The notes under the pieces were generated by a model, which made no database searches, was not told where the DNA came from, and worked only from the letters and a program-made list of their open reading frames with translations. Both the position numbers and the translations under genes were made by a program. From the NCBI GenBank assembly GCA_012295275.1, contig CM022677.1, positions 14,818,001 to 14,882,000 on the forward strand: a stretch of DNA of 64,000 nt, given 5' to 3'. This DNA is from Chrysomallon squamiferum (taxonomy: Eukaryota; Animalia; Mollusca). Shown here piece after piece: positions 1 to 54,430 of the stretch (position 1 is its first letter; every line of letters begins with the position of its first letter).

Positions 1-457
1 TTTAAGTATCCATTCTCATTTAGAACGGCTCGATGCAAGCGGCGATATTGCCTGTCTTGCGAGGGTGTTTTCAGAGTCGTCTTCCAAATAATATGGCAGT
101 GAGTTCCATATGTAGGATGATTTGAAATAGCCTGACATTCTTTTTGGTGATAAACCATTAATGTCTTCCATGATTTATTTCTCAAAAACGCTTTTAATTC
201 GTTTATCACACGGTCTTGACCCTTTGAAAGGTACTCATAGTTAGGCGTGGCCCAATGGTCAACAGTTTTAATATTTCCTGATTATCCATCTGGTATGACT
301 TGATGAAATTCTTACCAGTCGCATATATAAATTTCCCTTCTTTATCTTTTGCGAGACACCGAGGAACCAGATATTTCGGGTGAACCATGTCATAATTGAC
401 ATGACCCACCAAAACACTGTAATATGTATCTTCTGGAAGATCAACGAACCTATCCAT
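1..457 (-). CDS. NS1/Rep-like HUH endonuclease, N-terminal part (5' segment 457-316, HUH segment 277 to <1); the SF3 helicase is expected outside the window
   Basis: ATG at 457 in strong context (gaaATGg) gives MDRFVDLPEDTYYSVLVGH. A second frame, open from about 282 to the window edge, reads GNIKTVDHWATPNYEYLSKGQDRVINELKAFLRNKSWKTLMVYHQKECQAISNHPTYGTHCHIIWKTT, containing rolling-circle motif II (HUH followed by hydrophobic residues). The two frames join through a 38-nt GT-AG intron (315-278) or a 1-nt indel. Confidence 0.72.
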
Positions 458-513
458 TTCCAATAATGTATTTTCATATAATATGTTCTTTACGTTAAGA
501 GATAACAGTAACG

Positions 514-612
514 ACTGAAAACTTTTGAACGTTTCTTTATTTATAACGTTTAAAACATTACGTCATATATATGACGTCATATGGTGTACGTGACAAAATG
601 AACGTAACGTTA
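514..612 (-). promoter_or_regulatory. Internal viral promoter for NS1 (CRE/ATF sites, TATA, Inr) overlapping the likely VP poly(A) signal
   Basis: On the minus strand: TATAAATA at 545-538 and Inr-like TCAGT at 518-514 (A at 516, 29 nt from the TATA start). TGACGTCA at 572-579 and TTACGTCA at 558-565 overlap an 18-bp palindrome (560-577). AATAAA at 541-536. Confidence 0.7.
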
Positions 613-649
613 TTAAAAGACTAATCACTGTATTCATACGCTTAATATT

Positions 650-2769
650 TTATAATGGATATGACCAGTCATTTCCATTCCCCATAGTTTCTAATGTTCT
701 ATCACCATATGCACCATGTAATGGCCATAATTGTCTACGTCTATTTCTACGTTTATTCCAATTATCCCATATGGGTGGAAACGTTCTCATTTTCCATGTT
801 GTATTTATTCTTTCTTTATATTTAGCAGCATCTTCACCTAAAAATTGATCTTGTTCAGGATGTTTAACATTATCTTTATTACCCATTGGAGTAGTATCAT
901 CTTTTTTAAATATTAAACCTTGCATAGTACCAGGACATCCTCCTAATCCTATTGGAATATATTTTGGACACATGCCAGTCCGTACAATAAATTCAATCTC
1001 ACTATAATATGTTATCTGAATGTTAGCATGATAATTGAAAAATAATGTATTTCCTCCACTTGTTTTCTCAATGTCAGGATATAATCCAATTAAGAACATA
1101 GGAGGTCTGTTACATTGATATGTACGTCTATGTGAGCCATCTTTACAAACATCAATATTAGGATTATTTGCATTATTATGCATAACTCCTTGATTACTCA
1201 TTTTTGTCCCTCCATCATCTACCATAGATGGTGCACCAAGTACATTAGATGCCTTATTTTGAAAACAAGCTGTATAATGTATACGTCTGTATTGATGATT
1301 AAAATAACAACATATTGCAGTTCCCATTGGATGTTCTGTAGTATTGGTAACTACTATATCATGTGTTGGCCAAACCTCTAAATTACCTTTATTTTCGTTA
1401 GCACATTGATATTTAGATTTAATACATAATCCAGATATATCTGTAAAGTTAAGTGTATGTGATGTTTCTGATGGAAATAAAACGGTTGGTGAGTCTTTAC
1501 AGGTATAATCTAATGCAAAACCCCTGAACTAATTACAGTTTCTCTGTATCCATCATGTTTTTTCATGTCATATATATAATTAGGAGAGAATGTTTTATAT
1601 TCTAATCCATCACCTGTCCATGCATGATTTAATAATTGCATAGCCATATCACTTGGTAAATATAATTTTCTATCTGGTTGAACAGGTATACTTCTGTTAC
1701 TAATATCATCCATACATTCTTCATCTTTAAAATAGTAATTATGTGATAAATTTAATTTTTTTTCAGGCAAACCATAATCATTATTTACATCTGTAAATGT
1801 CCACACACGAGAATTTGGTGGTGCCATTACAGGTACTTCATTAGGATCAGATTTATTATTGTTTAAAACATGAACAATCATATTATTTATATTAAATCCT
1901 ATTCGTTTTACTCTATAACCCATAAAATCATCAGGTAAATTCCAATCATTAGCAGTAGTACTAGCTGCTTTATACCAATATGGTATTATATGCCCTCCAT
2001 GATTAAATGTAAATTCACATACATTTGGGTCCCCTATAGCCTTTTTCCAATTGATATTATCTGAATTATTATCCAATATTTTCATAACAGCTTTTCGTTC
2101 TTTCGTAAAATTAATAGTACTAGTAAATGTTCGTTTGAATGTTTTTTTAATTGTTATATAACGTGGATCTGTATATTTAGTTGCTCCACCAAAACCTTGA
2201 TACAACACATTATTACCGGTTGCAGATGCCATAGGTGCACCTTCAACAGCTTCACTTCCTCCTGTATCTGTAACTTCTTCATTCATTATGGAATCCGGCT
2301 CCATTACAGATTCCTGTGGTTGCAAATATGTACCTTTTGCATTTGATCTGTCTAATACATCTTGTGATACTGTACTAGATAACTGTTTGTTATCTTGAAC
2401 CTTAGCATCAGATCCTCCTGATGGTTCAGTTGATTGACGTTTCATAACTGATTTATTTTGATTTCCGGATGTGTCGTATATATTTCCTGGTTGTTCTTGG
2501 TTGTCGTAGAATAAAGGGGTCCCGAAAGGGTCGTCTTCGTCCGAATCTTCAACAGAGTTATAGTCTTGCCCAATATTTTGAATTGCCTGATAGAAATCGT
2601 TATTCGGAATTTGTATATTTGGATACTGACGTCGGATCGCAAGCCACTTTTCTTGTCGTTGTGAATAGGGGACATTTAGATCACCTAATATATTAAATGC
2701 TTTAGACTTAGCTATCGCCCAAAGTCTAGTGACTTCCTTCTTAGTCAACAGTCTCTTTCCTTTTGTCAT
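650..2769 (-). CDS. Densovirus-like capsid protein (VP), about 706 aa if the single frameshift at 1517-1524 is repaired
   Basis: The 419-aa ORF (2769-1510) has a G/S/A-rich linker followed by YITIKKTFKRTF and HIIPYWYKAASTTANDWNLPDDFMGYRVKRIGFNI, resembling densovirus jelly-roll strands. The -1 frame is open from about 1527 (GFALDYTCKDSPTVLFP...) straight into the 225-aa ORF (PPMFLIGLYP, ANIQITYYSEIEF, basic C-terminal KRRNRRR). No PLA2 motif is visible. Confidence 0.75.
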
Positions 2770-3131
2770 GAAATCGGTATGAGATTATATATATACGACA
2801 CGTTTTCGTTTTCGTCAGCCTCTAATTGATTTCTTTCAGTATCTGTGACGTTATTATCTATATCCTTTATATCAGGATTAACAAAATCCCCTAATTCTTT
2901 GATTGCTTGTTGAATCTGATTTTTAGTGTAATCAGATATACCTTCTACAGCTGATTCAACAACAGATGTTCCTATATTTATAGCTGGATCTAATAATGCA
3001 CTATCAGCTCCAATTATTTCTGTTATAGCTGGTGATGTAGATTCTAATATTGCTGTTGTGGCAAGTTCAACAGATGTATCGAAGGCGTATTCGATTAATT
3101 CTGTTGCAATTAATCCTAATGCAGTAAACAT
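2766..3131 (-). CDS. 121-aa acidic viral protein upstream of VP (putative minor structural protein)
   Basis: ATG at 3131 (MFTALGLIATELIEYAFDTSVELATTAILES...) lies just downstream of the TATA/Inr. Its TGA overlaps the VP ATG as ATGA (2769-2766). The longer 186-aa call in the ORF track starts at TTG inside the hairpin/promoter and is not credible. Confidence 0.6.
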   Translation of the reverse strand: MFTALGLIATELIEYAFDTSVELATTAILESTSPAITEIIGADSALLDPAINIGTSVVESAVEGISDYTKNQIQQAIKELGDFVNPDIKDIDNNVTDTERNQLEADENENVSYIYNLIPIS

Positions 3132-3157
3132 GCTATCATAACAACTATTATTATTAT

Positions 3158-3210
3158 AATGAACAAATTTTATAATATTTATATTATATATTATTAACCG
3201 GATATGACGT
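3158..3210 (-). promoter_or_regulatory. Terminal viral promoter driving the 121-aa ORF and VP
   Basis: TATATAA at 3190-3184 and Inr-like TCATT with A at 3160 (30-nt spacing). ATATGACGT at 3202-3210 is shared with the NS promoter (569-577). Confidence 0.55.
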
Positions 3211-3322
3211 GATATGTAAATTAATGTGATTTTTGGGACCTGATAGATCCCAACCCAACTCTTGCTTATTATTGAAAAAACAATGTATAACACGAATGGT
3301 TTTTGGTTTTTGGCCTTGAAAG

Positions 3323-3407
3323 CCAATATGTACTTTTAGCTTATGACCGTAGGGCTCGGGCTACGCCCGAAGGAGCTAGTCACCTTCGGGCTAAAAGTAC
3401 ATATTGG
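3323..3407. repeat. Parvovirus-type terminal hairpin (telomere)
   Basis: Perfect 18-bp inverted repeat CCAATATGTACTTTTAGC (3323-3340) / GCTAAAAGTACATATTGG (3390-3407). It encloses GC-rich internal palindromes: cgtag/ctacg, cccgaagg/ccttcggg, and the alternative tcgggc-tac-gcccga. Confidence 0.88.

Positions 3408-3411
<4 letters not shown>

Positions 3412-3454
<43 letters not shown>
3412..3454. repeat. (TG)n microsatellite at the virus-host junction
   Basis: Direct reading. Confidence 0.97.
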
Positions 3455-3457
<3 letters not shown>

Positions 3458-5299
3458 TGAATGAGTGTGTATGTTGTTTGATTTATAGCATATCTATCTA
3501 AAAAATGACTTTTTGAAATAGGAAAATATCAGGCCTCTATCTGTTTTCATAAGCTTGTTATTTTATTTTCAGACTAAACTCAACTAGTATAGTAAGTTAA
3601 ATCTAAATGTGGAAAAAGAAGAATTATTACTGTATTTAATAAAATCAAAAAGCATACACCCTGTCCAAAACAAAGAACCTACACTAACTGAATAAAAAAT
3701 CTTGTTTCACATAAGTATTGTTTATCACATTGAAACATCACAAAGATATATCATTAATCTAAAATCACAAATAAATTACATCTTTAAGTAAAATTCTCAA
3801 TAAATGCAGAATAAAAATTTAGTTACTTTGATTTCTTCATCTGAAAGTTTGCGCAACTGAAATAAAAATATACTGTTGAGACAGCTGTCCTAATGGGGGA
3901 ACAAATCTGGATATTGCTGATATTTTGCTAGTTAAGGAAAATGAAGGATGCAACACGAACTGCTGAACATAAAATGTGTTTCCTGAACTAATTTAACTAA
4001 TGTCTGCAATGACTGAAATAAGAAAACCTCAGCATAATATAAAATGTCAGTATAAGTAAAACATACATGCAAAAACTCTACATGATTTCAATAGACATAA
4101 CTGAAAACTAGGACTGTCATGTTACATGTAAGTATACGTTTTAATCAGTTGTTTGCTCAAACCTGTATTGTGGGATTCAGTATACACAGTGCAGACAAGA
4201 TTACACAATCAGAAGACTAACCAAAAAACCCAGATAGAAATGCATTTAATACCACCTTGAAACTGAGATACTGACCAATGTGTAACCAGACTTGCTAATC
4301 TTTTAATCTGAAAAGATCAAGAGCATTCTAATGAATTAATTAACTGCTATGATTTTAAAATGAGATGATATAATTAATTCAAACCACAAAAAAGTATTTT
4401 ATGCCATTACTATCTAAAGTAAACATCATTTATGAGAAATTTATATAAAATTTTTAATACTATTCTGTGCATAAAAATACATTTTGCTACTTTTAATTAA
4501 ATCCATCCTTAATCAAATGAGCCATAAAACCCAAAAGTGAATGAATAAAACATACAATATAGGAGCATTCAATCCACACATAGACATGGATATTTTAGAT
4601 CCTGGACAAGAAAAGTAAACTCATTCTTAATTAATAAAAATATATAAAACAATAGTTATGTAGATTATATTTTTAATTAGAAAAAAAAAACAAAAAAAAA
4701 CCCGCACACAAAGCTACTATAACCTAAAAACAACAATAGAACTTTCACCTTTTAAATTGTCTTCTTTACTGTTGAAACACGAACACAATAATTAAGTAGC
4801 ATCAGTAACAACAAAGATATGAATAAATTCTTAAGAGCTTTTAATTCAGCAACAAATAATTTACATTATTTTTTCTTACAAAATATCTGAATTAACAGCC
4901 TTTTTCATCAATGTATATCTGATTAGGGCTAACAATAAAAAATAAAAAATAAAAAAAAAGCTAGTAATGACAAAAATTATACATGTAAATATTTTTACCT
5001 TAATTTTTATACAAATATCATTATCATCTTTGTCAGTTAAAGAGTGACACATGTGAAAGGAAAAAGAAAAGACCGTGTTAACTTACTTGGTCTCTTCAAG
5101 TTCTGTTTGATTTTTTTTTTGTGTGGTTGTTTAATGTTCCCAACACCAGTAACCATTACTTCCCACTAACACATGCATGGAAATGAAAGTCATGTCTCTC
5201 ATCTCTCTGTGAAAATATATAATGTTTATTAGTATTAAAGGTATTTTATCTGTTTTTATCAATGTAAATTATTGCTAAATATACGCGAGTATGCAACAT

Positions 5300-6002
5300 A
5301 AAATATAAAGGGTAAAAAGAGAAAAAATAAGAGTAAAACTGTAAGTGGAGAAAGTGAACAGAAAATAAGGGTAAGCAGCAGCCAAGCTGGTCAAGAAGTC
5401 GCTATTACAAGGATGTCAAATACACAGAATAACGAGATGTTCATCTGCACCATTTTATAAGTGTCAGCAGTCACAGTATGGACAATACCAGGGTCAGTAT
5501 TCTGGGATAATTTCAACAGTTGTGCACATTCAAGATGTCAGTATATAATTAGATACCCTGATTAGAAAGTTATTACAAGGTTTGTTGGTGCTTAAACCAT
5601 TATTAAATTGATGTATCAGTGGTGAAATGATTGATATTTAGAAAAAAGTACAAGATATGAATTACATTCACTAACAGTTTGAAAGCAATAAAAATAAAAC
5701 TGAATAGTATGTAATTAAATACAAGATATCAGTGGTAAAATGTATGAATTACAATCACAGTTTGAAAGCAATAAAAATATCTCGGAGATTTGAAATCAAT
5801 TGTGTCAGATATGAACAGTTCTACTTATGAAATGAGAGATAATAATAACAGTGTGAAACAAAACATATGTGAATTAAAAACTGAGTTTGGAAACTTAAGA
5901 AAAAATGATCTACAAACTCGCTTCATGTGTGACAATTTAATCTTTAGTGGGATACCAGAGAAAGATGAGGAAGACACAGATGTGAAATTTACAACAAAAT
6001 AA
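5300..6002 (+). mobile_element. Degenerate LINE ORF1-like fragment
   Basis: A coiled-coil-like stretch followed by DLQTRFMCDNLIFSGIPEKDEED, matching the RSxRxNLxxxGIPE signature of L1/CR1-type ORF1p. The upstream part has stops and a short internal duplication (about 5614-5697 vs 5727-5779). Confidence 0.6.
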
Positions 6003-6020
6003 TCAGGTTTGTATAAAAGT

Positions 6021-6022
<2 letters not shown>

Positions 6023-6112
<90 letters not shown>
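6023..6112. repeat. Compound (TG)n(AG)n microsatellite
   Basis: Direct reading. Confidence 0.97.
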
Positions 6113-6116
<4 letters not shown>

Positions 6117-6633
6117 TATGTTATAAAATGGAACTTCCTACGTTAAATTAAATTAAACAACATTAGGTTTAGAATAACGAGAAATACGTAAGAAAACAAA
6201 CTCAAATTCACCTGTTCCAGTTTTTTCTCTTTTCCAGTGGCAGCAGTACAAATGTTTTCCTCAGTGCTGGACAGCACCTTCTACTGAAACAACTTCACTA
6301 GCAAACATCAGCATTCAATTATGTGCATTTTGAAAAAAAGAAATAAAAACCAAATTATAGAAATAATAAACTGTTATAAATAAATAACTAATGTTTCCAT
6401 TATTATTAAAATTAAAATTTTACTGGTACCAGTTACTCGATTATTCAGACACAAAGGGGTGTGGAATATTTTTGATATACTTTGTATAATCATGATAATG
6501 ATGATAATGGTATTAATTTAATTAATTAACAAAACAATGATTCTTATTATGCTATTTTACAATCAGTAAAGAGTTGTTACTATAAAATTTATTTCACTTT
6601 CTCTAAGAAATAAAAATAAGATAAAAAACTTAC

Positions 6634-6734
6634 AACTAGGAATTGTGCAGTCTGCAGTTTCTATACAGCTGATTCATCCTTCTCCATAATGTAAATTCCC
6701 TTTCTAGACAGCAACTGAACAATATTGCAATGAC
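6634..6734 (-). pseudogene. Decayed ankyrin-repeat-like exon
   Basis: Bounded by ttttatgtag| and |gtaagt. Translates (G)HCNIVQLLSRKGIYIMEKDES then a stop, resembling the ankyrin consensus GHxxIVxLLLxxGAxINxKD. Length is 101 nt versus the typical 99-nt ankyrin exon. Confidence 0.5.
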
Positions 6735-6898
6735 CTACATAAAATATTTAACATCAACAGTAAACAATGTTTTTAGCAATTCCAACATGGACATAATACT
6801 TTCTTTTTTTATCAATCTACATTTGTCTGATAAATGCATTCTTGTTTGCTTATAATCATTCATCTAATATGTCTCTCTCACACACAAACACACACATA

Positions 6899-6942
<44 letters not shown>

Positions 6943-6952
6943 AAGAACATAC

Positions 6953-7610
6953 CCTGCCACTGTTGAGAGGTTTCTGAAAACATTCTAACACAGGCCTAAC
7001 ACATCATTTGACACCAGACTCTTGATTCACATTATCAATAGTCTCTTGTATCCATTCTCTGGAAAATAGCCTGGATTTCTGTGATGATGAAGTAGGGGAC
7101 AGGGACATGGGTGCATTGGAACCACTCTTAATCAGGTACAGGACTAGCCCAGTTATTTGAATCATCTTGTTCTGCTGCAGCTACAGCCTCTGTTTTCTTC
7201 TCTCTGTTTTCTTTATCTTCACATTCAGCTTCATTCTCAGAGCAGCAAGCTCAGATGTTACCTGCTGCTCAACTTCCTGGCTGTTGTCTTTGCACACAGC
7301 CAATCCAGTCATCTGCCAAGTGGTTTTGTTTGGCAGAGTAGCAGATGAAGTCTTTTTACCAGCATCAGCTTGTTTTCACAACAACACGGACTGCTATGGA
7401 GCTCTGCCCTTTCCTTCTTGTTCCTGTCCATGCTGAATATAAACCATCAATACATCCATATTATAGATATTCCAGCAGCACTTGCACTCTACAGTGTGGT
7501 TCTGGTCAATGATTGTGTAGCTGGATGAGAAATTAATAAAATATTTCACTCAGATCTGATTTTTCATAGAAGCATCTTTAAATAAATCTGGAATATTTTC
7601 TCCACATGAT
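6953..7610 (-). pseudogene. Large decayed coding exon; the segment at about 7157-7262 resembles the CAMSAP/Patronin first coiled coil
   Basis: Bounded by ttttctag| and |gtatgt. One frame is largely readable with scattered stops: KKTSSATLPNKTTWQ...VTSELAALRMKLNVKIKKTERRKQRL*LQQNKMIQ, compared with CAMSAP SELxxLRMKLEEKRRxIE. Family assignment is from memory only. Confidence 0.45.
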
Positions 7611-8985
7611 CTAGAAAACATCAAATATAAACAAATATTAATAATGAAAAATAAAATGAATAATAATAATAAAGATTAAAATAATAATAATATTAAAAAA
7701 TAAAACACAAAATAATAAAAATTAGTAATAATAATAAGATGATTAAAAACAAAAAGGAAATACAACAAAACAAAACAAAATGTTGATTAATAAAATAAAA
7801 TTTACATTAAGAAAAGAAGGGATACAAAGAACAGTTATCACTGAGGATAACAAATTATTTGTGTGTGTGTGTGTGAATCATAAATAAACTGACAGAAAAC
7901 AACCTGTCAAACAAAATTAGCATATTTTCTTTTAATAGTTTTACTAGTTTATTTAAAAAAATAATAATAATAAAAAATAATAATAATAATAATAATAATA
8001 AAATTTAAAATTCTCTGTAAGTTGTTCTGTGGTGTTTCCTTTGGTGTGTGCTAAACAAGTCAATTTATTTTAAAACAAATTTAATTACTGGCCACTCAAA
8101 ATTTGCCCCTGATAGGCTGATACATCATGTTGGTAAAACAAAATTTGAGACTTTATATGACGTTGTTTATGCTGTTCCCATTAGTACAACCACTGGTGAA
8201 TGTTATTATTAATCGAGTGTCGTTTTTCGAAAAAATATAACAAATAAATAAATAAATAAATAAATAATTATTGTTCCCAAATAATATGGCTGCCATCATG
8301 TGTCTATGACTTTTAAATTATAATTAAATAAAACGAAAGAGATCCAAACGCATTATCAATTATAATAATAAATAGTAATACCTGTCTCCTTTACAAAATG
8401 AAATGATAATGCGATTACCCCAATTCTGTAGAAGATTCTTCGAACGTCAATTAAGAAGGTAAATCCGTGAAGACCGATAATCATCCCGCATTTTTCCGCA
8501 ACTACTACACTAAAAATAAAAAAAAAAAAAAAATAAATAAAACAAAAATAAAAATAATGTTCAAAAAAATAAAAAAATAAAAAATAAAGGAGCATAACAA
8601 CCTTTATTAAAATATACGTACTAATTATAAATCGATGTGGTTCTTTTATTTATTATTATTATTATTATTTTTTTTTTTTTTTTTTTTTATTATTATTAGC
8701 CAATCGTTGACCGAGAACTTCAAATACACGGTGTTGTTATTTTTTTTCCCCCTACTTTTTCTTTCTTCTCATTATTTATATTAATGCACCAAATAAAATC
8801 ACAAAGCTTACAATTCACACTACAATAACTTGCTTATTACTGTCCAGGAATTGACCGTTCTTTGATATACGTCTGAAAACATGGTCTGAAAAAATAAAAA
8901 ATATTATTTTACCTTTTACTAAGTACTGCAATCAGTGTCCTCCTGTATTAAAATATATTGTTAATATTTCTAGTAATGTAGCCGT

Positions 8986-9125
8986 GGCGCAACATTAACG
9001 TCGTAACTTATATTACACTATAGATTAAAATGATAATTTCAAGTAAGAACGTCGATTGTACAGAATACCCTTAATTTGGGAAATACAGAGCGTACTTTCA
9101 GTTCATTTTAATTTTTAATTTATTA

Positions 9126-9163
<38 letters not shown>

Positions 9164-12032
9164 TATGAAAAATAGAAGAAAACTTAAATGATATTCCATT
9201 ATGTATACAGTTATCACATTTATTTTGTAAAACGAGTGCAGTTTACACTATGAATCATATAACATAACATAATTATAAACAAGCAAAAATAAGGTGATAT
9301 TTTAAATTAAGGATACCGCTATTTTCACGAATAAATTATATAACATTACATAATTATAAACAAGCAAAAATAAGGTGTCAGTTTTACTTAAGGATAACGC
9401 TATTTGCACTGTTCGTTTTACCACTGAGTTATAAAAATAAATTTTAAAAACGTGTGCACTTTTGTGTAGTAGTTTACACGGGATTTTCGTTACATTGTGT
9501 TACACAGAACATTCACAGTTAGAGAGTAGCGGTGACACCAACCGTGTAAATTGTAAGAGAAGTCCGCCGATATCTTGAATAACTATGAATATCCTTCCAG
9601 ATTAGCTACCATTTTTTCTTAGTTTAGAAAAAAGTGTCTGCACTACATGTCTAATTATAAATATGTTTTGTGCTATAATAAAATATATATATATATAGAT
9701 ATGTCTCTAAAAAAATAATAACATTGTCTTAAAAACACTACGTTATTTTTTCTGAGTAAATAATTATTCTGACCTGATGTAGTAAACACAACATAAATTA
9801 CGTTGAGAAATATCACATTAATATCACAGTTGCTAATGAATTAACATTTTTATCTGGTTGCGATATTTTATTCCTGAATATTCACTGTACTTCTCAACTA
9901 GAAATATCAAGATGAATATCACTTCATATATAATAAATTACTTGCTAATATTTAACAGAGAAACCCCAGCTTTTCAATACACACCTGTCTACAAAAAGAA
10001 AATCAATATTTAATTATCATTTGAGATGCAACTAAAAACCAATGCTGATTTTGATAGTAACAGAGCAATTAGGTATTTGGAAACCCTCTTTATTTCTAAA
10101 TTTCTCAACTATCCTTCGTGAATGAGATGATATTCAGTTAGTTATACGACAAAACACTGATAATTACAGGTATGATTTCACTGTGAACATTCAGAAATAT
10201 AGATAGAACTTCGGTGTTGTAATTTTTTAAAATAATAGTAGCTTTGTATGTGACTCAAAAATATATCGAGAAATAAAGAGGGCGCATCTAGTGTAACATT
10301 TTATAAACACTAGAAACATGTTTCACTGAAAAACCACACAGCAGAACATTGTGCTAACTTCAGATACCGCTTTGAAATGTCCATTTTATTAAACGTGATG
10401 TGATATTTTACTTTGCTAATTCTACATCGTATAACAGGTGTAATTTTACTGTACGTGGAACTTAAATATTATGTACACTACAGAAAATACTGACAACTAT
10501 AGTTAATTAGACATTACTGACAGTTATAAATAATTCTGCATGGCGTTGTGAAAATAAGCGGTTTAATTACTTATAAAAAGAAAAAGATGAGAATTAATTA
10601 TGAGCAGTGATATTTAGTTTGTTGGTTAAGTATGTTGACGAATTGTTAATCTCATATTTTATTAATTATAGTTTGTTACATCAGGTTATACTGAAAAATA
10701 TCAGAATCATAATAGTGTGTACTGATTAGCTGAGAACAAGCAAGGTTAACATGTCATTTTATTATGCGAATTTTAATTTTTTCATTACATTCATTAAAAG
10801 GTGTACATCAGCGCAAGTTGTATAGTGTAATATTCTTTACATTTCTTATTATACCTGAAGTTCTCTTACATTAGATATTAATATAACCGCTCCACCAGTA
10901 AGTATCAATGAGTCAGTGAAGCAGACACCATATTTGTCAACAGCTAAATAACAACAGTAATAATAACACTTTAATATTTTTATTTTTTATTTTGTTTTTA
11001 TTTTTCTGTAAAAACGGAAGCTTCCTATATATGTTTGACGCTATTCTCTTAGTTTCATTAGAACTGTTCTGAGTGCGGATATAAAAATTACTTCGAACTT
11101 TTTATTAGGCCTCGTAAAGTTATCAGAGAAATCATATTTATTCTTAATGTATTGTTTCTGTCGAGATAAAAATTAAATACTTCTTTTTAAAAAAATATAT
11201 AATAATGATAATAATAATAATTAATTGGTTCATTTATAATATAATTACATGAGAAATCGTGAACTTTTATAAAACCACATTTAACTAAAAATATCGCTGT
11301 TTACACTGATAATGTTACCCATCGATAACAAAATAAGACGCAAGTTTTATAACGTCTGTATTATTTATATGAGACATTAAAATTACATTAATTAGAGATT
11401 ATCAGTTATATTATTGAATAAACATGGAATTTCATTCGAGATTAACTTACTTTTCTCAGTGTTTAAAAAAAAATCTGATATATTCTTAATTTGGGGGAAA
11501 ACAAAAATAATATTAATATTAATAATAAAAGTTCTGGTAGAGATGTTTATTGCATTCGTAACAGTTCATTCAAATTTATCTTAAAAATGCATTAATAATG
11601 AAAAACAAGGCAGCAATAGAAAATATAAAACAAATATATTTATTTTAATAAATATCAACATTATTAATTATAACATCTAAACAACAAGTGTAAGTTAAAT
11701 AGATATTTCTCTGTACAGAAGACAGCAGGTACAGATCTAGGGTGTGCTGTGTTAACATATTTGTGTGATGAGAAAATATCACAAATGTTCTCTTACTCGT
11801 CTACCATATAACACTTTCCATTTATTTTTTTATCACACACACTGCCTGAAATAAAAAATAAACAGTTACCAAGTAAAATTTCTCAAAACAGATTGTCATA
11901 GAATTTTATAGTATTTTAAAAGAATGAGAAAGAGAGAGACAAAGATGAAGCCGGCAAGAAAGATATAATGAGAGAGAGAAAAAAATAATAAGGAAGATGA
12001 TCAAAATAAAATAAAATAGGAGTGAAATATTG

Positions 12033-18506: not shown

Positions 18507-19204
18507 GTGATGAGAGTGTACTTTTTTATGGGTTATAAATGGACAGACAAACAGAAAGATACATATGGATTTTGAAAGTTGTTATGCATGCAGGAGATGA
18601 GTGAGACAGAGAGACTCAGAGGTAGAGAGAGTTTGATAGATTAAATGAAGCTGAATAAAGTCATAAAAAATAAATATTATCTGTGAATATCATGCAGTTC
18701 ATCAGCTAGTTTATGTATATTATTCTAACACAAAACAAAACTGCAGTGATTAAAATGCTGAAGTGTTATCTTGATGTGAACTTGACTTTTATCACCTACA
18801 AATCTATGTTTATTAAAGTTAACAGATTTGAATCCTGAACGAGGAAGTGATCCAGCTGATTAAAAAAAATAATAATTGAACAAAATAATGCAGACACTGC
18901 AACAGTAACACTGAAACTAATCATTTCATATATATAAAGTTTTATCTGGTAGGAAACAGAGTTGTAAGGATTTACATCTGCTTCTTCCTGATCAATGGCA
19001 GTTTATAACATAATTACCACCAACTTGATGGCTGTGCATTTGGAAGGTACAGTTTTCAGGAATATCGAGGAATAATTGAAGATAGCTTGGGTTTCAAGAT
19101 CTCCATAGATGACAAAAGACAAATTACACACAGACAAGAGAAATCCCCAAAACACAAAACAACAGTGAACAAAAGAAACACCAAACAGTACCAACCATTT
19201 ACAC

Positions 19205-22200
19205 ACTCTTCACAACAAGCAGACAATAACACAGACCTCTCCACTCTTCACAACAAACACACAATAACACACACCTCTCCACTCTTTACAACAAGCACAC
19301 AATAACACAGACCTCTCCACTCTTCACAACAAGCACACACAAAACACAGGTCTCTCACTTCACAACAAGCAGACAATAACACAGACCTCTCCACTCTTCA
19401 CAACAAACACACAATAACACAGACCTCTCCACTCTTCACAACAAGCACACAATAACACAGACCTCTCCACTCTTCACAACAAGCACACAATAACACAGAC
19501 CTCTCCACTCTTCACAACAAGCACACATACCTCTCCACTCTTCACAACAAGCACACAATAACACAGACCTCTCCACTCTTCACAACAAGCACACAATAAC
19601 ACAGACCTCTCCACTCTTCACAACAAGCACACAATAACACAGGTCTCTCCACTCTTCACAACAAGCACACAATAACACAGGTCTCTCCACTCTTCACAAC
19701 AAGCACAATAACACAGGTCTCTCCACTCTTCACAACAAGCACACAATAACACAGGTCCTCTCACTCTTCACAACAAGCACACAATAACACAGACCTCTCC
19801 ACTCTTCACAACAAGCACACAATAACACAGACCTCTCAACTCTTCACAACAAGCACACAATAACACAGACCTCTCTCCACTCTTCACAACAAGAACACAG
19901 GCCTCTCCACTCTTCACAACAAGCAAACAATAACACAGACCTCTCAACTCTTCACAACAAGCACACAATAACACAGGTCTCTCCACTCTTCACAACAAGC
20001 ACACAATAACACAGACCTCTCCACTCTTCACAACAAGCACACACACAGGTCTCTCACACAGACCTCTCCACTCTTCACAACAAGCACACAATAACACAGA
20101 CACAGACCTCTCCACTCTTCACAACAAGCACACAATAACACAGACCTCTCCACTCTTCTTCACAACAAGCACACAATAACACAGACCTCTCTCCACTCTT
20201 CACAACAAGCACACAATAACACAGACCTCCACTCTTCACAACAAGCACACAAATAACACAGACCTCTCCACTCTTCACAACAAAGCACACAATAACACAG
20301 ACCTCTCCACTCTTCACAACAAGCACACAAATAACACAGACAAGCTCTTCACACAAGAACACAGACCTCTCCACTCTTCACAACAAGCACACAATAACAC
20401 AGACCTCTCCACTCTTCACAACAAGCACACAATAACACAGACCTCTCAACTCTTCACAAACAAGCACACAATAACACAGACCTCTCAACTCTTCACTCTT
20501 CACAACAAGACCTCTCAAATCAAACACAATAACACAGACCTCTCCACTCTTCACAACAAGCACACAATAACACAGACCTCTCCACTCTTCACAACAAGCA
20601 CACAATAACACAGGTCTCTCCACTCTTCACAACAAGCACACAATAACACAGACCTCTCACTCTTCACAACAAGCACACAATAACACAGACCTCTCAACTC
20701 TTCACAACAAGCACACAATAACACAGACCTCTCCTCACTCTCTTCACAACAAGTACACAATAACACAGACCTCTCCACACAAGACCTCTCCACTCTTCAC
20801 AACAAGCACACAAATAACACAGACCTCTCCACTCTTCACAACAAGCACACAATAACACAGACCTCTCCACTCTTCACAACAACACAGGTCTCTCCACTCT
20901 TCACAACAAGTACACAATAACACAGGTCTCTCCACTCTTCACAACAGGTACACAATAACACAGACCTCTCCACTCTTCACAACAAGCACACAATAACACA
21001 GACCTCTCCACTCTTCACAACAAGCACACAATAACACAGACCTCTCCACTCTTCACAACAAGCACACAATAACACAGACCTCTCCACTCTTCACAACAAG
21101 CACACAATAACACAGACCTCTCCACTCTTCACAACAACAAGCACACAATAACACAGACCTCTCCACTCTTCACAACAAGCACACAATAACAACACAGACC
21201 TCTCCACTCTTCACAACAAGCACACAATAACACAGACCTCTCCACTCTTCACAACAAGCACACAATAACACAGGTCTCCACTCTTCACAACTCTTCAATA
21301 AACAAGACCTCTCCAATAACAACAAGCACACAATACCCTCTCTCCACTCTTCACAACAAGCACACAAATAACACAGACCTCTCCACTCTTCACACAACAA
21401 GGAACACAGACACTCCACTCTTTCACAACAAGCACACAATAACACAGACCTCTCCACTCTTCAACAACAAGCACACAAGGTCTCTCAACACAGACAACAA
21501 GCTCAATAACACAGGTCTTCTTCACAACAAGCACACAATAACACAGGTCTCTCCACTCTTCACAACAAGCACACAATAACACAGACCTCTCCACTCTTCA
21601 CAACAAGCACACAATAACACAGACCTCTCCACTCTTCAAACAAATAACACAACAACACAGACCTCTCCACTCTTCACAACAACAAGCACACAATAACACA
21701 GACCTCTCCACTCTTCACAACAAGCACACACAATAACACAGACCTCTCCACTCTTCACAACAAGCACACACAATAACACAGACCTCTCCACTCTTTCACA
21801 ACACAACAAGCACAACTTTCAACAAGACCTCTCACAGGTCTCTCCACTTCACAACAACAACACAATAACACAGACCTCTCCACTCTTCACAACAAGCACA
21901 CAACAACACAGACCTCTCCACTCTTCACAACAAGCACACAATAACACAGACCTCTCTCTCACTCTTTCACAACAAGCACACAATAACACAGGTCTCCTCT
22001 CACTTCACAACAAGCACACAATAACACAGACCTCTCCACTCTTCTCCACTCTTCAACAAGCACACAATAACACACAGACCTCTCCACTCTTCACAACAAG
22101 CACACAATAACACAGGTCTCTCCACTCTTCACAACAAGCACACAATAACACAACAACTCTCCAGACTTCTTCACAACAAGCACACAATTACACAGACCTC

Positions 22201-24100
22201 TCCACTCTTCACAACAAGACACACAACACAGACTCTCCACTCTTCACAACAAGCACACAATAACACAGGTCTCTCCACTCTTCACAACAAGCACACAATA
22301 ACACAGGTCTCTCCACTCTTCACAACAAGCACACAATAACACAGACCTCTCCACTCTTCACAACAAGCACACAATAACACAGACCTCTCCACTCTTCACA
22401 ACAAGCACACAATAACACAGGTCTCTCTTCTCTTCACAACAAGCACACAATAACACAGGTCTCTCCTCTTCACAACAAAGACACCTCTCCACTCTTTCAC
22501 AACAAGCACACAATAACACAGACCTCTCCACTCTTCACAACAAGCACACAATAACACAGGTCTCCACTCTTCACAACAAGCACACACAATAACACAGACC
22601 TCTCTCTCACAACTCTTCACAACAAGTCTCCATACAAATAACACAGACCTCTCCACTCTTCACAACAAGCACACAATAACACAGACCTCTCCACTCTTCA
22701 CAACAAGCACACAACAACACAGACCTCTCCACTCTTCACAACAACACAATAACACAGACCTCTCCACTCTTTCAACAAGCTCACAATAACACTCTCACTT
22801 CAACAACAAAATCACATGACCTCTCCACTCTAACAAGACACAACAACACACCTCTCCACTCTTCACAACAACAAGCACAATAACACAGACCTCTCAACTC
22901 TTCACAACAAACACACAATAACACAGACATCTCCTCTCAAACAACAAGATCACAATAACACAGACCTCTCCACAACAAAACAAGCACACAATAACACAGG
23001 TCTCCACTCTTCACAACAAGCACACACATAACACAGACCTCTCTTCAACAAGCACTTCACAACAAACAACAACAAATAACACAGGACCTCTCAACTCTTC
23101 ACAACAAGGACACAAAATACACAGACCTCTCAACTCTTCACAACAAGCACACAATAACACAGACAAAACTCTTCACAACAACACACAATAACACAGACCT
23201 CTCACTCTTCACAACAAGCAACAATAACACAGACCTCTCACTCTTCACAACAAGCACACAATAACACAGACCTCTCAACTCTTCACAACAACAAGCACAC
23301 AAATAACACAGACCTCTCCACTCTTCACAACAAGCACACAAAGAACACAGGTCTCTCCACTCTTCACAACAAACAACACAATAACACAGACCTCTCCACT
23401 CTTCACAACAAACAAGCACACAATAACACAGGTCCTCTCAACTCTTTCACAACAAACACAATAACAGATCAACCTCTCAAATTCACAACACACAAGACCT
23501 CACAACACTCTCTTCAACAACAAGAACACAGACTCTCCACAACAACAACACACAATAACACAGACCTCCACTCTTCAACAAGCACAACAAGCAACAACAA
23601 ACACAGAAACTCTCCTCTCTTCACAACAAGCACACAATAACAGACAGGTCTCACAACAAAACAACAAACACACACCTGGCCTCCACTCCACTCTTCACAA
23701 CAACAAACACACAACACTCTCTCAACTCAACACAACAACAACACAATAACTTCTCAACAAAAACAAAGTAAAACAACACAAACCTCTTCACAACAAGCAC
23801 ACAATAACACAGACCTCTCAACACTCTCACTTCAACAAACACACACAGACTCCTCACAAACAAACAACAACACAAACAATCTTCACAACTCAACACAACC
23901 TCTCCAAGAACAAGCAACAAAACACAGACCTCTCAGCTCTTCACAACAAACAAAAAAAACAACACAGACAGGTCCTCTCAGCTCACTTCACAAACACAAC
24001 ACAATAACACACAACACCACAACTTCTTCAACAAAAAGGGAGGTCCTCTCTAAAAACAAACACACAAAACACAAGGATCAACTCTTCAAACAACAAAAAC
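19205..24100 (+). repeat. 38-bp minisatellite array (CACAACAAGCACACAATAACACAGACCTCTCCACTCTT), increasingly degenerate to the right
   Basis: Period of 38 read directly (gacctc at 21001 and 21039). Variants include gacc/ggtc. Confidence 0.96.
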
Positions 24101-24189
24101 AACACAACACAATGAACACACAAGCCTCAAGCAACAACGTCAACAAAACCAATTTCAGGAAGAACATTCCAAGACACCACGTCCAAAAA

Positions 24190-26068
24190 CATCAACCAAG
24201 CCAAAGAGACACACCAACATAAAATACTAAGCATGACAGTACACAATAACAATCAAAACATCGACATAATTAATATATACAGCCCACCCACTCCCACACT
24301 ACACACCTTAAACCCACAACTTAAACAAAATGATAACAACAAACAAGAAGCTCATTATAGTGGGCAATTTCAACTGTCACAACACCTTATGGGGTGGCTC
24401 AACAGACAACAGTCCTGGAATCATCCTAGAAAATTTCATACAGCAAAACCAGCTGTTCTGTCTGAACGATGGAACACACGTACACCAGCGACATCAATGG
24501 TGACCAATCCCCCATTGATCCAATATTCACAAGTAAGGACATCACAGTGCTCTGTGAATGGCAAGTGCTCAATGAATTAAACAGCAACCTTCACCTAATA
24601 CTCACCAGCAAGAACACTTTCTCAGACAGAGCCATTTTCACACTCAAATGGAACTTCAAGAAAGCGGACTGGTAAGGCTTCTATAAAGCATGCAGAAACA
24701 TCACCAAACAGAACCCCAATGACATCAACACCTACTGCACATCACTCACCAACACGATATACTCCACTGCAAACAAATTCATACCCAAAACCAGACAATG
24801 CACTGGTGAAGTTTCCAACCTAATAAGAACACTCTGAATTCTTTTGCAACAACATCAACCACAAAACATCAGTCAAAGACATGTGGGCCAAAGTAAAAAT
24901 CATCCAAGGAAAAATTCCCCACAGAATCAACACTCTCAGCAAAAACAACATCACATTCACAGACAAACAAAAAGCAGACCTACTCAGCAAAACCTTCGCC
25001 AAGTCCAGCAGCAACTCGAACTTCCCACTGAAATTCACAAAGAGAATACTGGACAACCCAACAATCGACAAACATTCCGCAGACACAGAACACTTGAAAT
25101 ACAATCAACTCTTCAACATCAGCGAATTAAAACATGCACTCAAAAACAAGAAAAGTACTGCCACGGGGCCAGATAAAATAAGCTACACAATACTACAATA
25201 CCTACCAGATGAAATACTACTCTTCATATTCAATCTCTACAACACAATATGGACCACAGGCAAAATTCAGAAAAAACAGGAAACACGCCGAATGTTTCAG
25301 CTTGCCCAAACCACACAAAGATCACTCACTACCCAACAGCTACAGACCGATCATGCTGATGTCACACATGTGCATGGTATGGAGGGAAGGACTGCTCGTC
25401 AAATTAATCAACAACAACATCAAAGGCAACATGTTCAACTTCATTAAAGACTTTATCAACAACAGATCCGTAGCAGTCAAAGTGAACAGTCACACCTCAG
25501 AGAAAACGACAGTCGACAATGGCATCCCACAAGGATCCGTGATCTCTCCAACACTCTTCAACATCTACATCAATGACATCGTCACAGCACTCGACACCAA
25601 AAATCAACCAACTGAACCAATAAACACAGCACTCTTTGCAGACGACTGCGACTTTTGGCGTGCAGGCAGAAACAAATACAAAAAGACCTAAACAACATAA
25701 ACGACTGAACATTGAAATGGGGCATAAAGATTTCTCTTTCCAAAACGACATACCTCCTTTTCAACAAAAAAACAGGCAACAACAAAATCACACTAAACAT
25801 CAACCACAACGTCATAACACAAACCAAAACATTCACATTTCTAGCCAACATTCAACAGCCAACTCAACTTCGGATGACACATACACAACATAATTGCATC
25901 CTGCAAAAAAACACTCTATCTTCTAAAGCTAATTTCCGGAACCAGTTGGGGAGCAAATGAGTCAATGCTAATTCTGATATACAAATCATGTATTCTCTCC
26001 AGGCTCGACTATGGAGCCATGGCTTACTTGAATGCTCCCGAACACTCTTTAACAAAAACTAGAGGCAT
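24190..26068 (+). mobile_element. Decayed non-LTR retrotransposon ORF2 (APE endonuclease plus RT), I/Nimb/Ingi-like clade
   Basis: Endonuclease motifs IINIYSPP, IVGNFNCHNTLWG, LNDG, SPID, KWNFKKADW. RT motifs ATGPDKISY, PKPHKD...SYRPI, GIPQGSVISPTLFNIYINDI, LFADD, then WGAN...IYKSCILSRLDYG. There are frameshifts, an internal deletion between SHMC and VWREG, and a 3' truncation. Confidence 0.92.
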
Positions 26069-36442: not shown

Positions 36443-39400
36443 ACCTAGACATAACGATAGATACAAATATAGGTTAATACACAATAGAGATAACGATACA
36501 TACAGGTATAGATTAATACACACCTATAGTGAAGAATAGATGTAGATAGATTAATACACACCTAAAGATAACAATAAATTCAGATATGGATTAATACACA
36601 CCTACAGATAACCACAGATAGAGATTTTAGATTAATACACACCTATAGATAACGAGAGATACAGATTTTAGACTGACACACATTATAAATCACGACAGAA
36701 ACAGTTATAAAATTGTTGGCCCCTAAACATAACGATAGATAAATATATAGACTGAAACATACCTATAGAAAATGATAGAAACATATATTGAGTAAAACAC
36801 ACATAAACATAACGATAGATAAATATATAGACTGAAACATACCTATAGAAAATGATAGAAACATATATTGAGTAAAACACACATAAACATAACGATAGAC
36901 ATATCAATTGCTTAATAAATAATGAGACACAGAAAAATATAGTAATATATACCGATATAGATTAATACACACCTGCAGTAACCATATATACATATACAGA
37001 TCAGTACACACCTAAAGATAACGATAGAAACATATATAAATTAATACATAACTACAGATAACTATAGATATAGATATAGAATAATACACGGCTACAGATA
37101 ACGAGAGATACAGATTATAGATTCATACACTCCAATAGATATAGACAGAAACAGATATACTAATTAACACCTAAGAATAATAATAGATTGAAACCTAGCT
37201 ATATAAAATGACAAACATATATAGATTAAAACACACATAAAGATAACGATAGATTTATGAATAGCTTAACAATAATAAATAATGATATATACACATATAG
37301 AAAAACATAATGATATCTACAGATATAGATCAAAACGCAGCTAAAAATAAAGATACATACAGGTATAGATTAATACACACCTAAAGGTAACGATAGATAG
37401 AGATATCGATTAATACAGACGTATAGATAACTATAGACACAGATATAGACTAACACACAGAACCAGACGATTGATTAATACACGTCTGATGATAACGATA
37501 GAAACAGATATAGCTTAATATACACATAGAGATAACAATTGGTAGAGATTTTAGATTAATGCACACCTATAAATCACGAAAGAAACAGACATAAATTAAT
37601 ATACACATAAAATTAACGGAGTCAGATATACAGATAGATACACACTACAGATTACGATAGATAGCTTTATAGACTAATACACACCTATAGACAAGGAACT
37701 CACTACACAGATTGAAACACACCGACAGATAATGATTGATACAGATGTAGGTTAATCAAAAGCTTCAGATAAACAAGACACATATATAGAGATTGAAACA
37801 AACAAATAGATAACGGTCGGTACATAGATTAATTCACACCTACAGATAACGATAGATACAGATATAGATTTATACACATCCACAGAGAAAAAGATACATT
37901 CAGATATAGATGAACAGACACCTACATATAAGCACATACACAGATATATATTAATACACACCTATAGATAAAGATAGATTCAGATAAAGATTCATACACA
38001 CCTATAGATAACGATACTTACATATATAGATTAACAACTACCTAAAGATACATTCAGATATAGATTAATACACACCTACATATAAGCACAGACACAGATA
38101 TATATTAATACACACCTATAGATAAAGATAGATTCAGACAGAGATTCATACACACCTATAGATAACGATACTTACATATATAGATTAACAACTACCTAAA
38201 GATACATTCAGATATAGATTAATACACACCTACATATAAGCACAGACACAGATATATATTAATACACACCTATAGATAAAGATAGATTCAGACAGAGATT
38301 CATACACACCTATAGATAACGATACTTACATATATAGATTAACAACTACCTAAAGATACATTCAGATATAGATTAATACACACCTACATATAAACACAGA
38401 CACAGATATATATTAATACACACCTATAGATAAAGATAGATTCAGACAGAGATTCATACACACCTATAGATAACGATACTTACATATATAGATTAACAAC
38501 TACCTAAAGATACATTCAGATATAGATTAATACACACCTACATATAAGCACAGACACAGATATATATTAATACACACCTATAGATAAAGATAGATTCAGA
38601 CAGAGATTCATACACACCTATAGATAACGATACTTACATATATAGATTAACAACTACCTAAAGATACATTCAGATATAGATTAATACACACCTACATATA
38701 AGCACAGACACAGATATATATTAATACACACCTATAGATAAAGATAGATTCAGATGCAGATTGACACGCACCTAAAGATAACAATAAATACAGATATAAA
38801 TTAATACACACCTGTAGTATCCACGTATACAGATATAGATTAATACACGTCTAAAGATAAAGACAGAAACCGATATAGATTAATATATATATACATGTAG
38901 GTAAAGATAGATAGTTATTTTAGATTAATTCAACGATAACGATAGATTAGAACATATGAACAGAGACATAGAGACATAGATTAATGCATAAATAAATATA
39001 ACGATATATACAGATATAGGTCTATATAGATGGCAATATAAACAGGTACAGATTAATACACATCTACAGATACTAAAAGATACATATATAGGTTAATACA
39101 CACACATAGATAAAGATACCTTTAGATAGAGATTAATACACACCTACGGACAAACATAGATACAGATAAAGATTAATACACACCAAACGATAAGGATAAA
39201 TGCAGATATACATTGACACACACCTAAAGATAAGAACATATATAGACTAACGACACACGTATAAGTAATGCTAATACACACCTAAAGATGACGATAATTA
39301 CAGATTTATATTAGAACTCACCTACAGATAAGGATAGATAGGGATATAGACTAATACACACCTACAGATAACGATTAATGGAGGTATAGATTAATATACA

Positions 39401-40640
39401 TCTACAGATAACCAAACACAGAGATATAGATCGATACAGACCTAAATATAAATACAGAAACAGATATAGACAAATACTCCAACAGATAAGGAAATAAACA
39501 GATATAGAAAATACACAATTAGAGATAACCATTGATACGGATACAGAGCAAAACGCACTAACAGATAGATGCAGATATAGATTAATACACACCTACGATA
39601 ACGATAGCTGGAAATTTTAGATTAATCCAGATCAATAGATACAGTTACCGATTAATAGACACCAAACGATAATAGTAGATACAGATATATACTAATACAC
39701 ACCTACAGATAATTTCAGAAGCAGATACAGATTAATACGCATCTATACGTAACTATAGATAACAATAGATATAGATTAATATACACGCTGATGTAGATAT
39801 ATATTGATACACAGCTATTGATAAAGATAGATACATATATAGATTGATACACACCTACTGATAAAGATACATACATATATAGATTCACACACATATAAAT
39901 ATAGTTTAACAGTTGCGTATAGATAACGAAAATACATACACGGATTGACACACAGATAGGGTCAAATACAGTTATAGATTAACACACACCTACAGGTAGG
40001 TCAAATAAAGTTATGGACTAAAAACACCCTTACAGATAACGGAGACACACACAGATATATATATGTCTCCTTATCTGTTGGAGTATTTGTCTATATCTGT
40101 TTCTGTATTTATATTTATGTCTGTACTAATCAATATCTCTATGTTTGGTTATCTGTAGATGTATATTAATATATATATACATATATATATATATAGATAG
40201 ATAGATAGATAGATACCTACGGATAGCGACAAATACATTTATAGATTAACAAACACGTACATATAACGTAAACAGATATGTAGATAGGTACACATCTACA
40301 GATAAGAATAGATACAGATAAATATTGCTACACAGAAATATGACGATAGATACCCAAAGAGATTAATACAAAGTGACTGATAACGAAGATACAGTTATAG
40401 TTTAATATTGACCTACACATAACGTATATACATTAACAGATTAATGCAAACCTACAGATAGCGATAGATAAAGATACAGATTAATAAACACCTGATATAA
40501 TGATAGATACACAATAATAAGAGATATAAACCAGCAGAAAGTGATATAGATTGTTAACGCTTATAGATAACGATAGCTACAGGAATAGACTGATACACGC
40601 CTACAGATAACGATAGATACAGATATAGATTAATAACATA
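36443..40640 (+). repeat. ~40-bp satellite (ACCTACAGATAACGATAGATACAGATATAGATTAATACAC-like) with a 154-bp higher-order repeat at 37921-38755
   Basis: Monomer read directly. cctacatataaRcac recurs at 37921, 38075, 38229, 38383, 38537 and 38691. A short inverted segment lies at about 40064-40170. Confidence 0.93.
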
Positions 40641-47700: not shown

Positions 47701-47964
47701 AGATAACGACAGAATCAGATATAGATTAACACAACACACCTATAGATAAGGAAGACAGACATATGGATTCATATATTCGTGCATATAACGCATAGACAGA
47801 GACTGTAGATGAATGCACACCTTCATAATACGAAGAGACATACACAGATTGACAGATACTACAAATAACGACAGACACAGATATAGATTAACCCACAGCT
47901 GCAGATTACGAGTATACATATATATAGATTGACAGACACCCCTACAGATACCGGAGACATATAT

Positions 47965-48042
<78 letters not shown>

Positions 48043-54000: not shown

Positions 54001-54430
54001 ATATAGTTTGATAAACACCTGCAGAAAACGACAGATACAGATACAGATAGATAAACATCTACAGATAATAATAGACACAGATACAGATATAGTTTGATAA
54101 ACACATGCACATAACGATAGATACAGATACAGATAGATAAACACCTACAGATAATAATAGATACAGATACAGATAGATACACACCTACTGATAACGATAA
54201 ATACAGATACAGATAGATAAACACATGCATATAACAATAGACAGAGATATAGATAGATAAACACCTATAGGTAACGATAGATACAGATAGATAAACACCT
54301 GTAGATAACGATAGACACAGATACAGATATATAAACACCTACTGATAACGATAGATACAGATACAGATAGATAAACACCTACAGATAACGATAGATACAG
54401 ATAGAGATAGATAAACACATGGAGATACAG
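44740..54430 (+). repeat. ~40-bp satellite: degenerate at 44740-48370, homogeneous at 48370-54430 with ~785-bp (x2) and ~1033-bp (x3) higher-order repeats
   Basis: Identical repeat-derived ORFs in the track recur at 49788/50573 (785 apart) and 51198/52232/53265 (1034 and 1033 apart). (GATA)n at about 47967-48040. Confidence 0.95.

Follow-up and report, generated by a model that had tools for sequence, protein, structure and literature searches.

Can a parvovirus-like genome place its capsid gene first and its nonstructural (NS) gene second on the same strand? The question is raised by one end of a 64,000-nucleotide (nt) stretch of Chrysomallon squamiferum (Mollusca) DNA (GenBank assembly GCA_012295275.1, contig CM022677.1, positions 14,818,001 to 14,882,000; hereafter, the window), for which an original prediction proposed a third genome organisation of linear single-stranded DNA viruses, with a terminal hairpin, a capsid (VP) cassette and an NS1 cassette following one another on the minus strand of positions 1–3411. 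The available text of PMC11357303 gives all parvoviruses an NS-left, VP-right order, that of PMC12297876 describes only monosense and converging ambisense plans, together with the rolling-hairpin replication of parvoviruses, and the large lineage with extra upstream cassettes in the accessible part of PMC13426907 still has NS1 before VP. A capsid-first monosense lineage would, if true, be a third parvovirus plan beside the monosense and ambisense NS-left, VP-right ones. Full-text literature searched by words, with subscription papers mostly outside, held no capsid-first monosense parvovirus, which is weak evidence of absence, and no complete genome map for such a virus group was found in the literature searched. 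Here, we report that the element is a broken endogenous copy, defective in both large genes, and that it probably descends from a linear, hairpin-ended parvovirus-like virus in which the capsid gene leads and NS, read from an internal promoter, comes after it on that strand.

Arrangement of the element

Read on the minus strand from position 3407 to position 1, the coordinates bore out the predicted order: inward from a host-like (CA)n tract come the hairpin, a TATA/Inr, an open reading frame (ORF) named ORF121, the capsid gene, a 192-nt spacer and an NS frame with an HUH motif. With hairpin, capsid and NS on one strand, the element departs from the layout of Parvoviridae (NS left, VP right, monosense or converging), and with both selected coding frames on the minus strand it departs from that of ambisense Densovirinae. 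The fold-back hairpin (3323–3407, minus strand) is 85 nt long, with an 18-bp perfect stem and a branched or bulged top, and folded at −26.3 kcal/mol (z −6.58; 0 of 200 shuffles as good), a two-armed Y fold lying within 0.3 kcal/mol of the best one. It gave by far the strongest 100-nt fold in 1–3600 (−25.9 vs −13.7 for the best window elsewhere), resembles parvovirus telomeres in both size and shape, and is likely the terminal replication origin. This palindromic hairpin, of which the linear genomes of Parvoviridae bear one at each end, marks the visible end, the opposite end of the element lying beyond the window. Between the capsid stop, which ends at 650, and the NS ATG at 457 we measured 192 nt, in agreement with the ~190 bp predicted, and the weak fold of 500–700 (z −2.45; 4 of 200 shuffles as good) agrees with the claim that no telomere-like hairpin separates VP from NS.

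Both large genes, on the minus strand, are split over two frames. The capsid gene breaks near 1510–1530 into an N-terminal piece of 419 residues (1510–2769), 50% identical to residues 1–400 of a relative, P0003, and a C-terminal piece in another frame (650–1528; stop at 652–650), 54% identical to P0003 residues 401–690. The NS gene breaks near 260–285 into a first piece from the ATG at 457 (206–457) and a second piece (1–281) that carries a Glu codon at 140–138 and an H-C-H motif at 101–93 and runs off the window. Exact short-read contigs from two studies (X1 and X2) matched 1–413 without difference, and an X1 contig likewise matched 1283–1645 exactly, X1 possibly being the source of the assembly itself; since both frame breaks are present in these contigs, they are not assembly errors. 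An exact X1 contig extends 899 nt beyond window position 1.

Each cassette was predicted to have its own correctly spaced TATA/Inr. By motif scan, the putative capsid-cassette promoter (3158–3210, minus strand) comprises ACGTCATAT at 3210–3202, a TATA at 3190 and the Inr TCATT at 3162, while the spacer (458–649, minus strand) contains a predicted capsid poly(A) signal and a predicted NS promoter with eight ACGT sites (one a full TGACGTCA), a TATA at 545 and the Inr TCAGT at 518. The resulting TATA-to-Inr patterns, at 3190–3158 and 545–514, were the only two in 1–11,000, each on the coding strand and shortly before one of the two cassettes; the prediction thus held for presence and placement, but across the window the pattern by itself does not occur less often than chance predicts (9 found vs 7.8 expected). 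The element ATATGACGT, claimed to be shared, does occur in both promoters, twice on the coding strand and once reversed in that of NS, but it is reversed in the capsid promoter and occurs three more times in host DNA. Eight ACGT sites in the spacer were reached by 4 of 5,000 shuffles, and same-size windows sampled elsewhere in the sequence held at most five. The sole AATAAA after the capsid stop (541) overlaps the NS TATA box (545). A short upstream ATG frame precedes each main ATG, one of 7 codons at 3139 (3116–3139) and one of 69 codons at 477, the latter a candidate ORF (268–477, minus strand) that starts just upstream of the NS ATG and overlaps NS; such frames may serve to adjust translation or code for a protein like NS2.

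Capsid, NS and ORF121 proteins

The identification of VP as a capsid was tested on P0003, one of the intact 690-residue relatives (another is P0010), which covers both window pieces. An AlphaFold2 model of P0003 built from a 36-row alignment reached a pLDDT of 60.7 overall and 80–94 over much of the core. Foldseek matched this model to parvovirus capsids in the PDB (E 1.9e-9), all rows listed being parvoviral, and to a parvovirus capsid in BFVD (E 1.3e-15 at 16% identity). With VIA-align, 20 of 48,161 chains scored Z≥8, all 20 of them parvovirus capsids; the best match was the capsid of Bombyx mori densovirus 1 (BmDNV-1; Z 15.0, root-mean-square deviation 4.8, 280 aligned), and the next unrelated chain scored Z 5.5. 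The capsids of circular single-stranded DNA viruses scored lower (bacilladnavirus Z 5.2, BFDV Z 4.9) than those of parvoviruses (Z 10–15). On this modelled relative, the capsid family has the parvovirus jelly-roll fold, and the VP identification stands.

The family itself is unnamed, having no Pfam family and a best structural neighbour at 16% identity. Its 36 rows gave no match to a Pfam capsid family, Denso_VP4 included, and the capsid had no match in a PDB sequence search; a parvoviral PLA2 domain, common but not universal in the minor capsid proteins of Parvoviridae, was present in 1 of the 36 members and, by Pfam, in neither window capsid piece. Among 1.84 billion proteins, the N-terminal piece had 2 close clusters and 47 representatives at E≤0.001, clusters being defined at 50% identity. 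Most members share an N-terminal helical motif, modelled at pLDDT 81–90: a three-helix domain with a W-G-x-A-K motif at residues 10–65 of P0003 and at 2600–2770 of the window, which in the relative P0043 follows the PLA2 domain. It had matches of Z ~5 at most in the whole-model search, and we draw no conclusion on a new fold.

Among 20 representatives, 13 came from Logan contigs of 1.9–7.4 kb, 4 from ENA or JGI, and 3 were named proteins, all from sea-slug genomes (Elysia marginata, Plakobranchus ocellatus and Elysia chlorotica). The contigs of the top 10 Logan representatives measured 3.3–7.4 kb (three at 3.3–3.8 kb, most at 4.8–7.4 kb), and 5 of the 6 Logan contigs in one cluster (P0016) measured 6.4–7.0 kb; the 3.3–7.4 kb sizes fit single-piece genomes. 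Parvoviridae package linear single-stranded DNA of ~4–6 kb. A quick capsid tree without bootstrap grouped the window with P0002 and P0003 (SH-aLRT 100) and did not unite the three sea-slug proteins, two long-branch joins being unsafe. Four sea-slug records annotated as hypothetical proteins (GFO18446.1, GFO18449.1, GFR75904.1 and RUS86780.1) belong to the capsid family and, judging by sequence, are likely unrecognised endogenous viral genes.

The label NS1, a protein with an N-terminal HUH endonuclease domain in Parvoviridae, is based in the second gene on its H-C-H motif and upstream Glu. Its neighbours in the Atlas were HUH Rep clusters (117-like; ORF2/G2P) with scores of 0.87–0.89, which we treat as leads only, and its single-sequence model was all-helical and of low confidence (pLDDT 58.7). 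The NS pieces present in the window, the remainder of the gene lying beyond its edge, gave no Pfam hit, whether to a Helitron RepHel with PIF1 helicase or to a Replitron transposase.

ORF121 (2766–3131, minus strand) is acidic, starts with a hydrophobic segment and has no family match, a Pfam PLA2 match included; its stop overlaps the capsid ATG at 2769. It may serve as a minor virion protein or in entry, by analogy with the separate PLA2 ORF found at this place in other densoviruses. In none of 73 proteins compared does ORF121 form a fused N-terminus (best E 0.31), and it gave no match to the Elysia chlorotica protein, whose start looks similar (E 2.1).

Shared order in diverged copies and competing explanations

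A breakpoint at 580–650 unique to this locus would have undone the capsid–NS order. Public runs of the host species contained many diverged copies (502, 334, 690 and 83 contigs on 1–4600, host flank included), and most contigs placed from X1 (502) and X3 (690) were <95% alike to the window; the small word shares of X3–X7 were not counted as absence of the window copy. Among diverged contigs placed on 1–1100 at 80% likeness, one from X6 spans 533–825 (49 other letters, 14 gaps) and one from X1 spans 494–740 (36 other letters, 15 gaps), both crossing the capsid stop into the NS promoter, and one from X3 spans 283–520, from the NS interior to the Inr. Joints also came in pairs of equal depth, namely 459>534 with 608>696 (depth 55.5 in X6) and 422>540 with 607>696 (depth 81.6 in X3 and 31.2 in X6), from which we infer single contigs running through NS, spacer and capsid. 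Another joint, 2633>2981, connects ORF121 and capsid in a diverged copy. The junction of capsid, spacer and NS is thus shared by copies ~80% identical to the window, so that it is not a breakpoint unique to this locus, and the HUH frame travels with the capsid rather than belonging to an unrelated neighbouring element.

We then classified the 40 best-supported of 931 differences on 1–4600 and the 40 best-supported of 517 on 1–1100; dropping 8 differences in the host flank left 70 distinct sites, and dropping 13 in the spacer or near the breaks left 57. Third codon positions held 39 of the 57 (p 7e-8), and 37 were synonymous, vs ~20% expected. By piece, third positions accounted for 14 of 19 differences in the N-terminal and 10 of 21 in the C-terminal capsid piece, 9 of 11 in the first NS piece and 6 of 6 in the HUH piece, where all six were also synonymous. 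Divergence being mostly synonymous, capsid and NS were both under purifying selection while the junction-sharing copies diverged, and NS is therefore really encoded by the frame that starts at ATG 457 together with the HUH frame. This pattern fits separate strains of a replicating element rather than host duplication of a dead rearrangement, and with the order kept in diverged copies it agrees with the argument against a random rearrangement. Several diverged strains have likely integrated into the host germline.

Several observations weigh against a capsid-first virus. All evidence on order comes from one host species; the third organisation is accordingly backed by a same-strand order shared among diverged copies but documented in that species only. 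The window ends within the NS nuclease domain and contains neither a helicase nor a second hairpin, and the NS piece had no significant match in Pfam, the PDB or the protein collection (40 candidates), so that the name NS1 holds for the H-C-H motif with upstream Glu in a selected frame but not for a helicase inside the window or a significant homologue. The C-terminal capsid piece alone showed no significant third-position excess (p 0.12). No diverged contig listed bridges hairpin and ORF121 with ≥31 letters on each side, the best joint, 3144>3233, having a side of 30, one letter below this bridging rule. Finally, capsid relatives recur on single contigs, two on a contig of 8,418 nt and at least three on one of 297,455 nt (judged from equal contig sizes), and two capsid genes lie three locus tags apart in Plakobranchus ocellatus.

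This recurrence, together with the many diverged copies in X1 and X3, favours an alternative that we nevertheless consider unlikely: what replicates would be a circular molecule, or a mobile element of rolling-circle type, that has a single hairpin origin; the HUH protein would nick at this hairpin and insert linearised or tandem copies all starting there, and "capsid first" would be just the order counted from that origin. A circular or concatemeric unit repeated in tandem would show several capsid copies per contig, a single hairpin was seen, and HUH transposons generally bear hairpins at one or both ends according to the available text of PMC10288648. However, the capsid fold is far nearer to linear parvoviruses than to circular viruses (Z 10–15 vs 5.2 and 4.9). 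Concatemers also arise in ordinary parvovirus integration, and the 85-nt branched hairpin is presumably telomere-like, both of which speak against a circle. A spacer-to-hairpin joint was absent among the joints listed (15 of 24; 15 of 36). More improbable still is an origin from a parvovirus of ordinary NS-then-capsid order that entered the genome as a head-to-tail concatemer with no hairpins left at the join, the rearranged block being multiplied afterwards by the host. Both genes are broken in the window copy, capsid copies are clustered in other hosts, and monosense parvoviruses have left-end origin and promoter elements resembling the ACGT/CRE sites of the spacer; yet copies ~20% diverged share the junction and differ mainly at synonymous sites, which duplication of a dead block would not produce, and this route would also require a hairpin immediately before the capsid cassette, in the place expected for NS.

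We regard as very unlikely a bipartite virus resembling the Acheta domesticus segmented densovirus, its capsid and NS segments joined on integration. A bipartite parvovirus is known (PMC11357303, available text), each cassette here has its own promoter, and 3 of the top 10 Logan representatives lie on contigs of 3.3–3.8 kb, but the join has no hairpin remnant, is shared by diverged copies, and most family contigs measure 4.8–7.4 kb. Least credible to us, and highly improbable, is that the HUH frame, though part of the element, encodes something other than a parvoviral NS1, such as a Rep lacking the helicase, so that a parvovirus capsid would have been combined with a different replicon in a chimera. 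The missing sequence match to parvoviral NS1 and the Atlas leads to 117-like and ORF2/G2P Rep clusters would agree with it; against this, parvoviral nuclease domains are poorly conserved outside their motifs (PMC13426907, accessible part), and a Glu before H-x-H suits parvovirus, CRESS and transposon Reps alike (PMC10288648, available text).

Beyond the host species, protein-based scans of viral and prokaryote contigs for the genome context of relatives yielded no locus, two of the viral-contig scans giving one confirmed relative match each without a locus; from a metagenome came one locus of 1,011 nt, which contained no more than a fragment of the capsid, and phage records had no match. Locus tags and parvovirus terms had no match in 24 of the 32 supplementary files of PMC8079154. 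An RNA run of the host species (X7) was rejected as evidence of expression: it contained diverged capsid, ORF121 and NS contigs, but also covered the host flank, had no strand information and came from one study. It had no cover at 482–518.

Known systems, proposed expression and host flank

Among known systems, ambisense densoviruses (Planococcus citri, Acheta domestica and Blattella germanica, BFVD ranks 2, 16 and 23) share the capsid fold and the order of hairpin, promoter and capsid cassette at one end, and in some genera the capsid cassette likewise consists of two ORFs (PMC12297876, available text). Their NS lies on the opposite strand and converges (same text), whereas here it lies on the same strand with an internal promoter; the capsids are 11–12% identical, the Denso_VP4 match is missing and ORF121 has no PLA2. 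By analogy, the element resembles the capsid-bearing half of an ambisense densovirus whose NS cassette has been flipped. Monosense parvoviruses (Parvovirinae, hamaviruses and iteraviruses such as BmDNV-1, the best structural match) resemble it in using one strand with one terminal and one internal promoter, but the gene order is swapped relative to their NS-left, VP-right plan (PMC11357303, available text). The layout being different and the SF3 helicase region of NS1, on which classification is based, lying beyond the window, we call the element parvovirus-like and do not file it in Parvoviridae.

The Swazi bat-associated megaparvovirus lineage, compared here by description (PMC13426907, accessible part), is likewise invertebrate-type, ~6.4 kb and atypical in layout; it has an ORF of structural type (PLA2) ahead of NS1, and endogenous copies of it exist in full. 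Its major capsid gene, in contrast, follows NS1, and its capsid is hamavirus-like without an N-terminal extension, where members of the present family have a conserved helical domain at the N terminus, besides a long linker modelled with low confidence. Mollusc parvovirus-related sequences that branch outside known genera were identified with SF3 domains in PMC5013282, whose available text gives no gene order and which we compare by description; the named relatives found here come from the three sea-slug genomes. Parvo-like sequences serve as piRNA sources in starfish and anemone (PMC6085071, available text). Replitrons and Helitrons share the HUH motif with upstream Glu, a terminal hairpin and many genomic copies (PMC10288648, available text), but no capsid is described for them, whereas here several diverged copies link the HUH frame with a capsid of parvovirus fold.

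Because hairpin, HUH motif and capsid occur together, we infer rolling-hairpin replication, in which the hairpin would prime synthesis and re-initiate it after nicking by the HUH protein. The terminal promoter would yield one mRNA for ORF121 and capsid, the latter translated by stop-restart or leaky scanning at the overlapping stop and ATG, and the internal ACGT/CRE-rich promoter would drive NS first. With the predicted poly(A) signal of the capsid gene situated within the TATA box of NS, we propose that capsid transcription occludes NS: late capsid transcripts, ending at this AATAAA, may run over and damp the NS promoter, making an early-to-late switch. Tentatively, and with more doubt than belief, we extend the capsid-first reading to a widespread unnamed 6–7 kb parvovirus-like family of molluscs and other aquatic invertebrates, sharing the third plan and the poly(A)-in-TATA timing switch, one cassette inversion from ambisense genomes as a missing intermediate between monosense and ambisense plans, and with repeated multi-copy entry into germlines. 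If true, the origin of ambisense genomes would become testable, the plans differing by inversion or swap of one cassette and being orderable by an NS1 tree, and the many diverged, once-functional copies in one host would be a dated record of the virus group.

Outside the hairpin, separated by just a few bases, a (CA)n microsatellite (3412–3470) starts the host-like flank, of which 3543–4600 is a high-copy repeat in the host species (its contigs sum to a greater depth than those of the viral part), with no second copy found within the window. An Rfam scan of 1–8000 gave no match. On the host side, 58738–58768 contains TATAAATATGACGTCA followed at promoter spacing by TCAGT, much like the NS promoter, with no long frame near it in the ORF list. 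A non-LTR retrotransposon lies in fragments at 24116–25691 and carries a reverse transcriptase fragment at ~25.2–25.7 kb (Pfam RVT_1, E 9.5e-12). The window is AT-rich (GC 22–44% per kb) and crowded with microsatellites and satellite arrays of 38–40 nt and, with the RVT_1 fragment, therefore reads as animal nuclear DNA. The long arrays of 38–40-nt units are strand-skewed and occupy 19204–23466, 36443–40637, 46453–54418 and 60302–64000.

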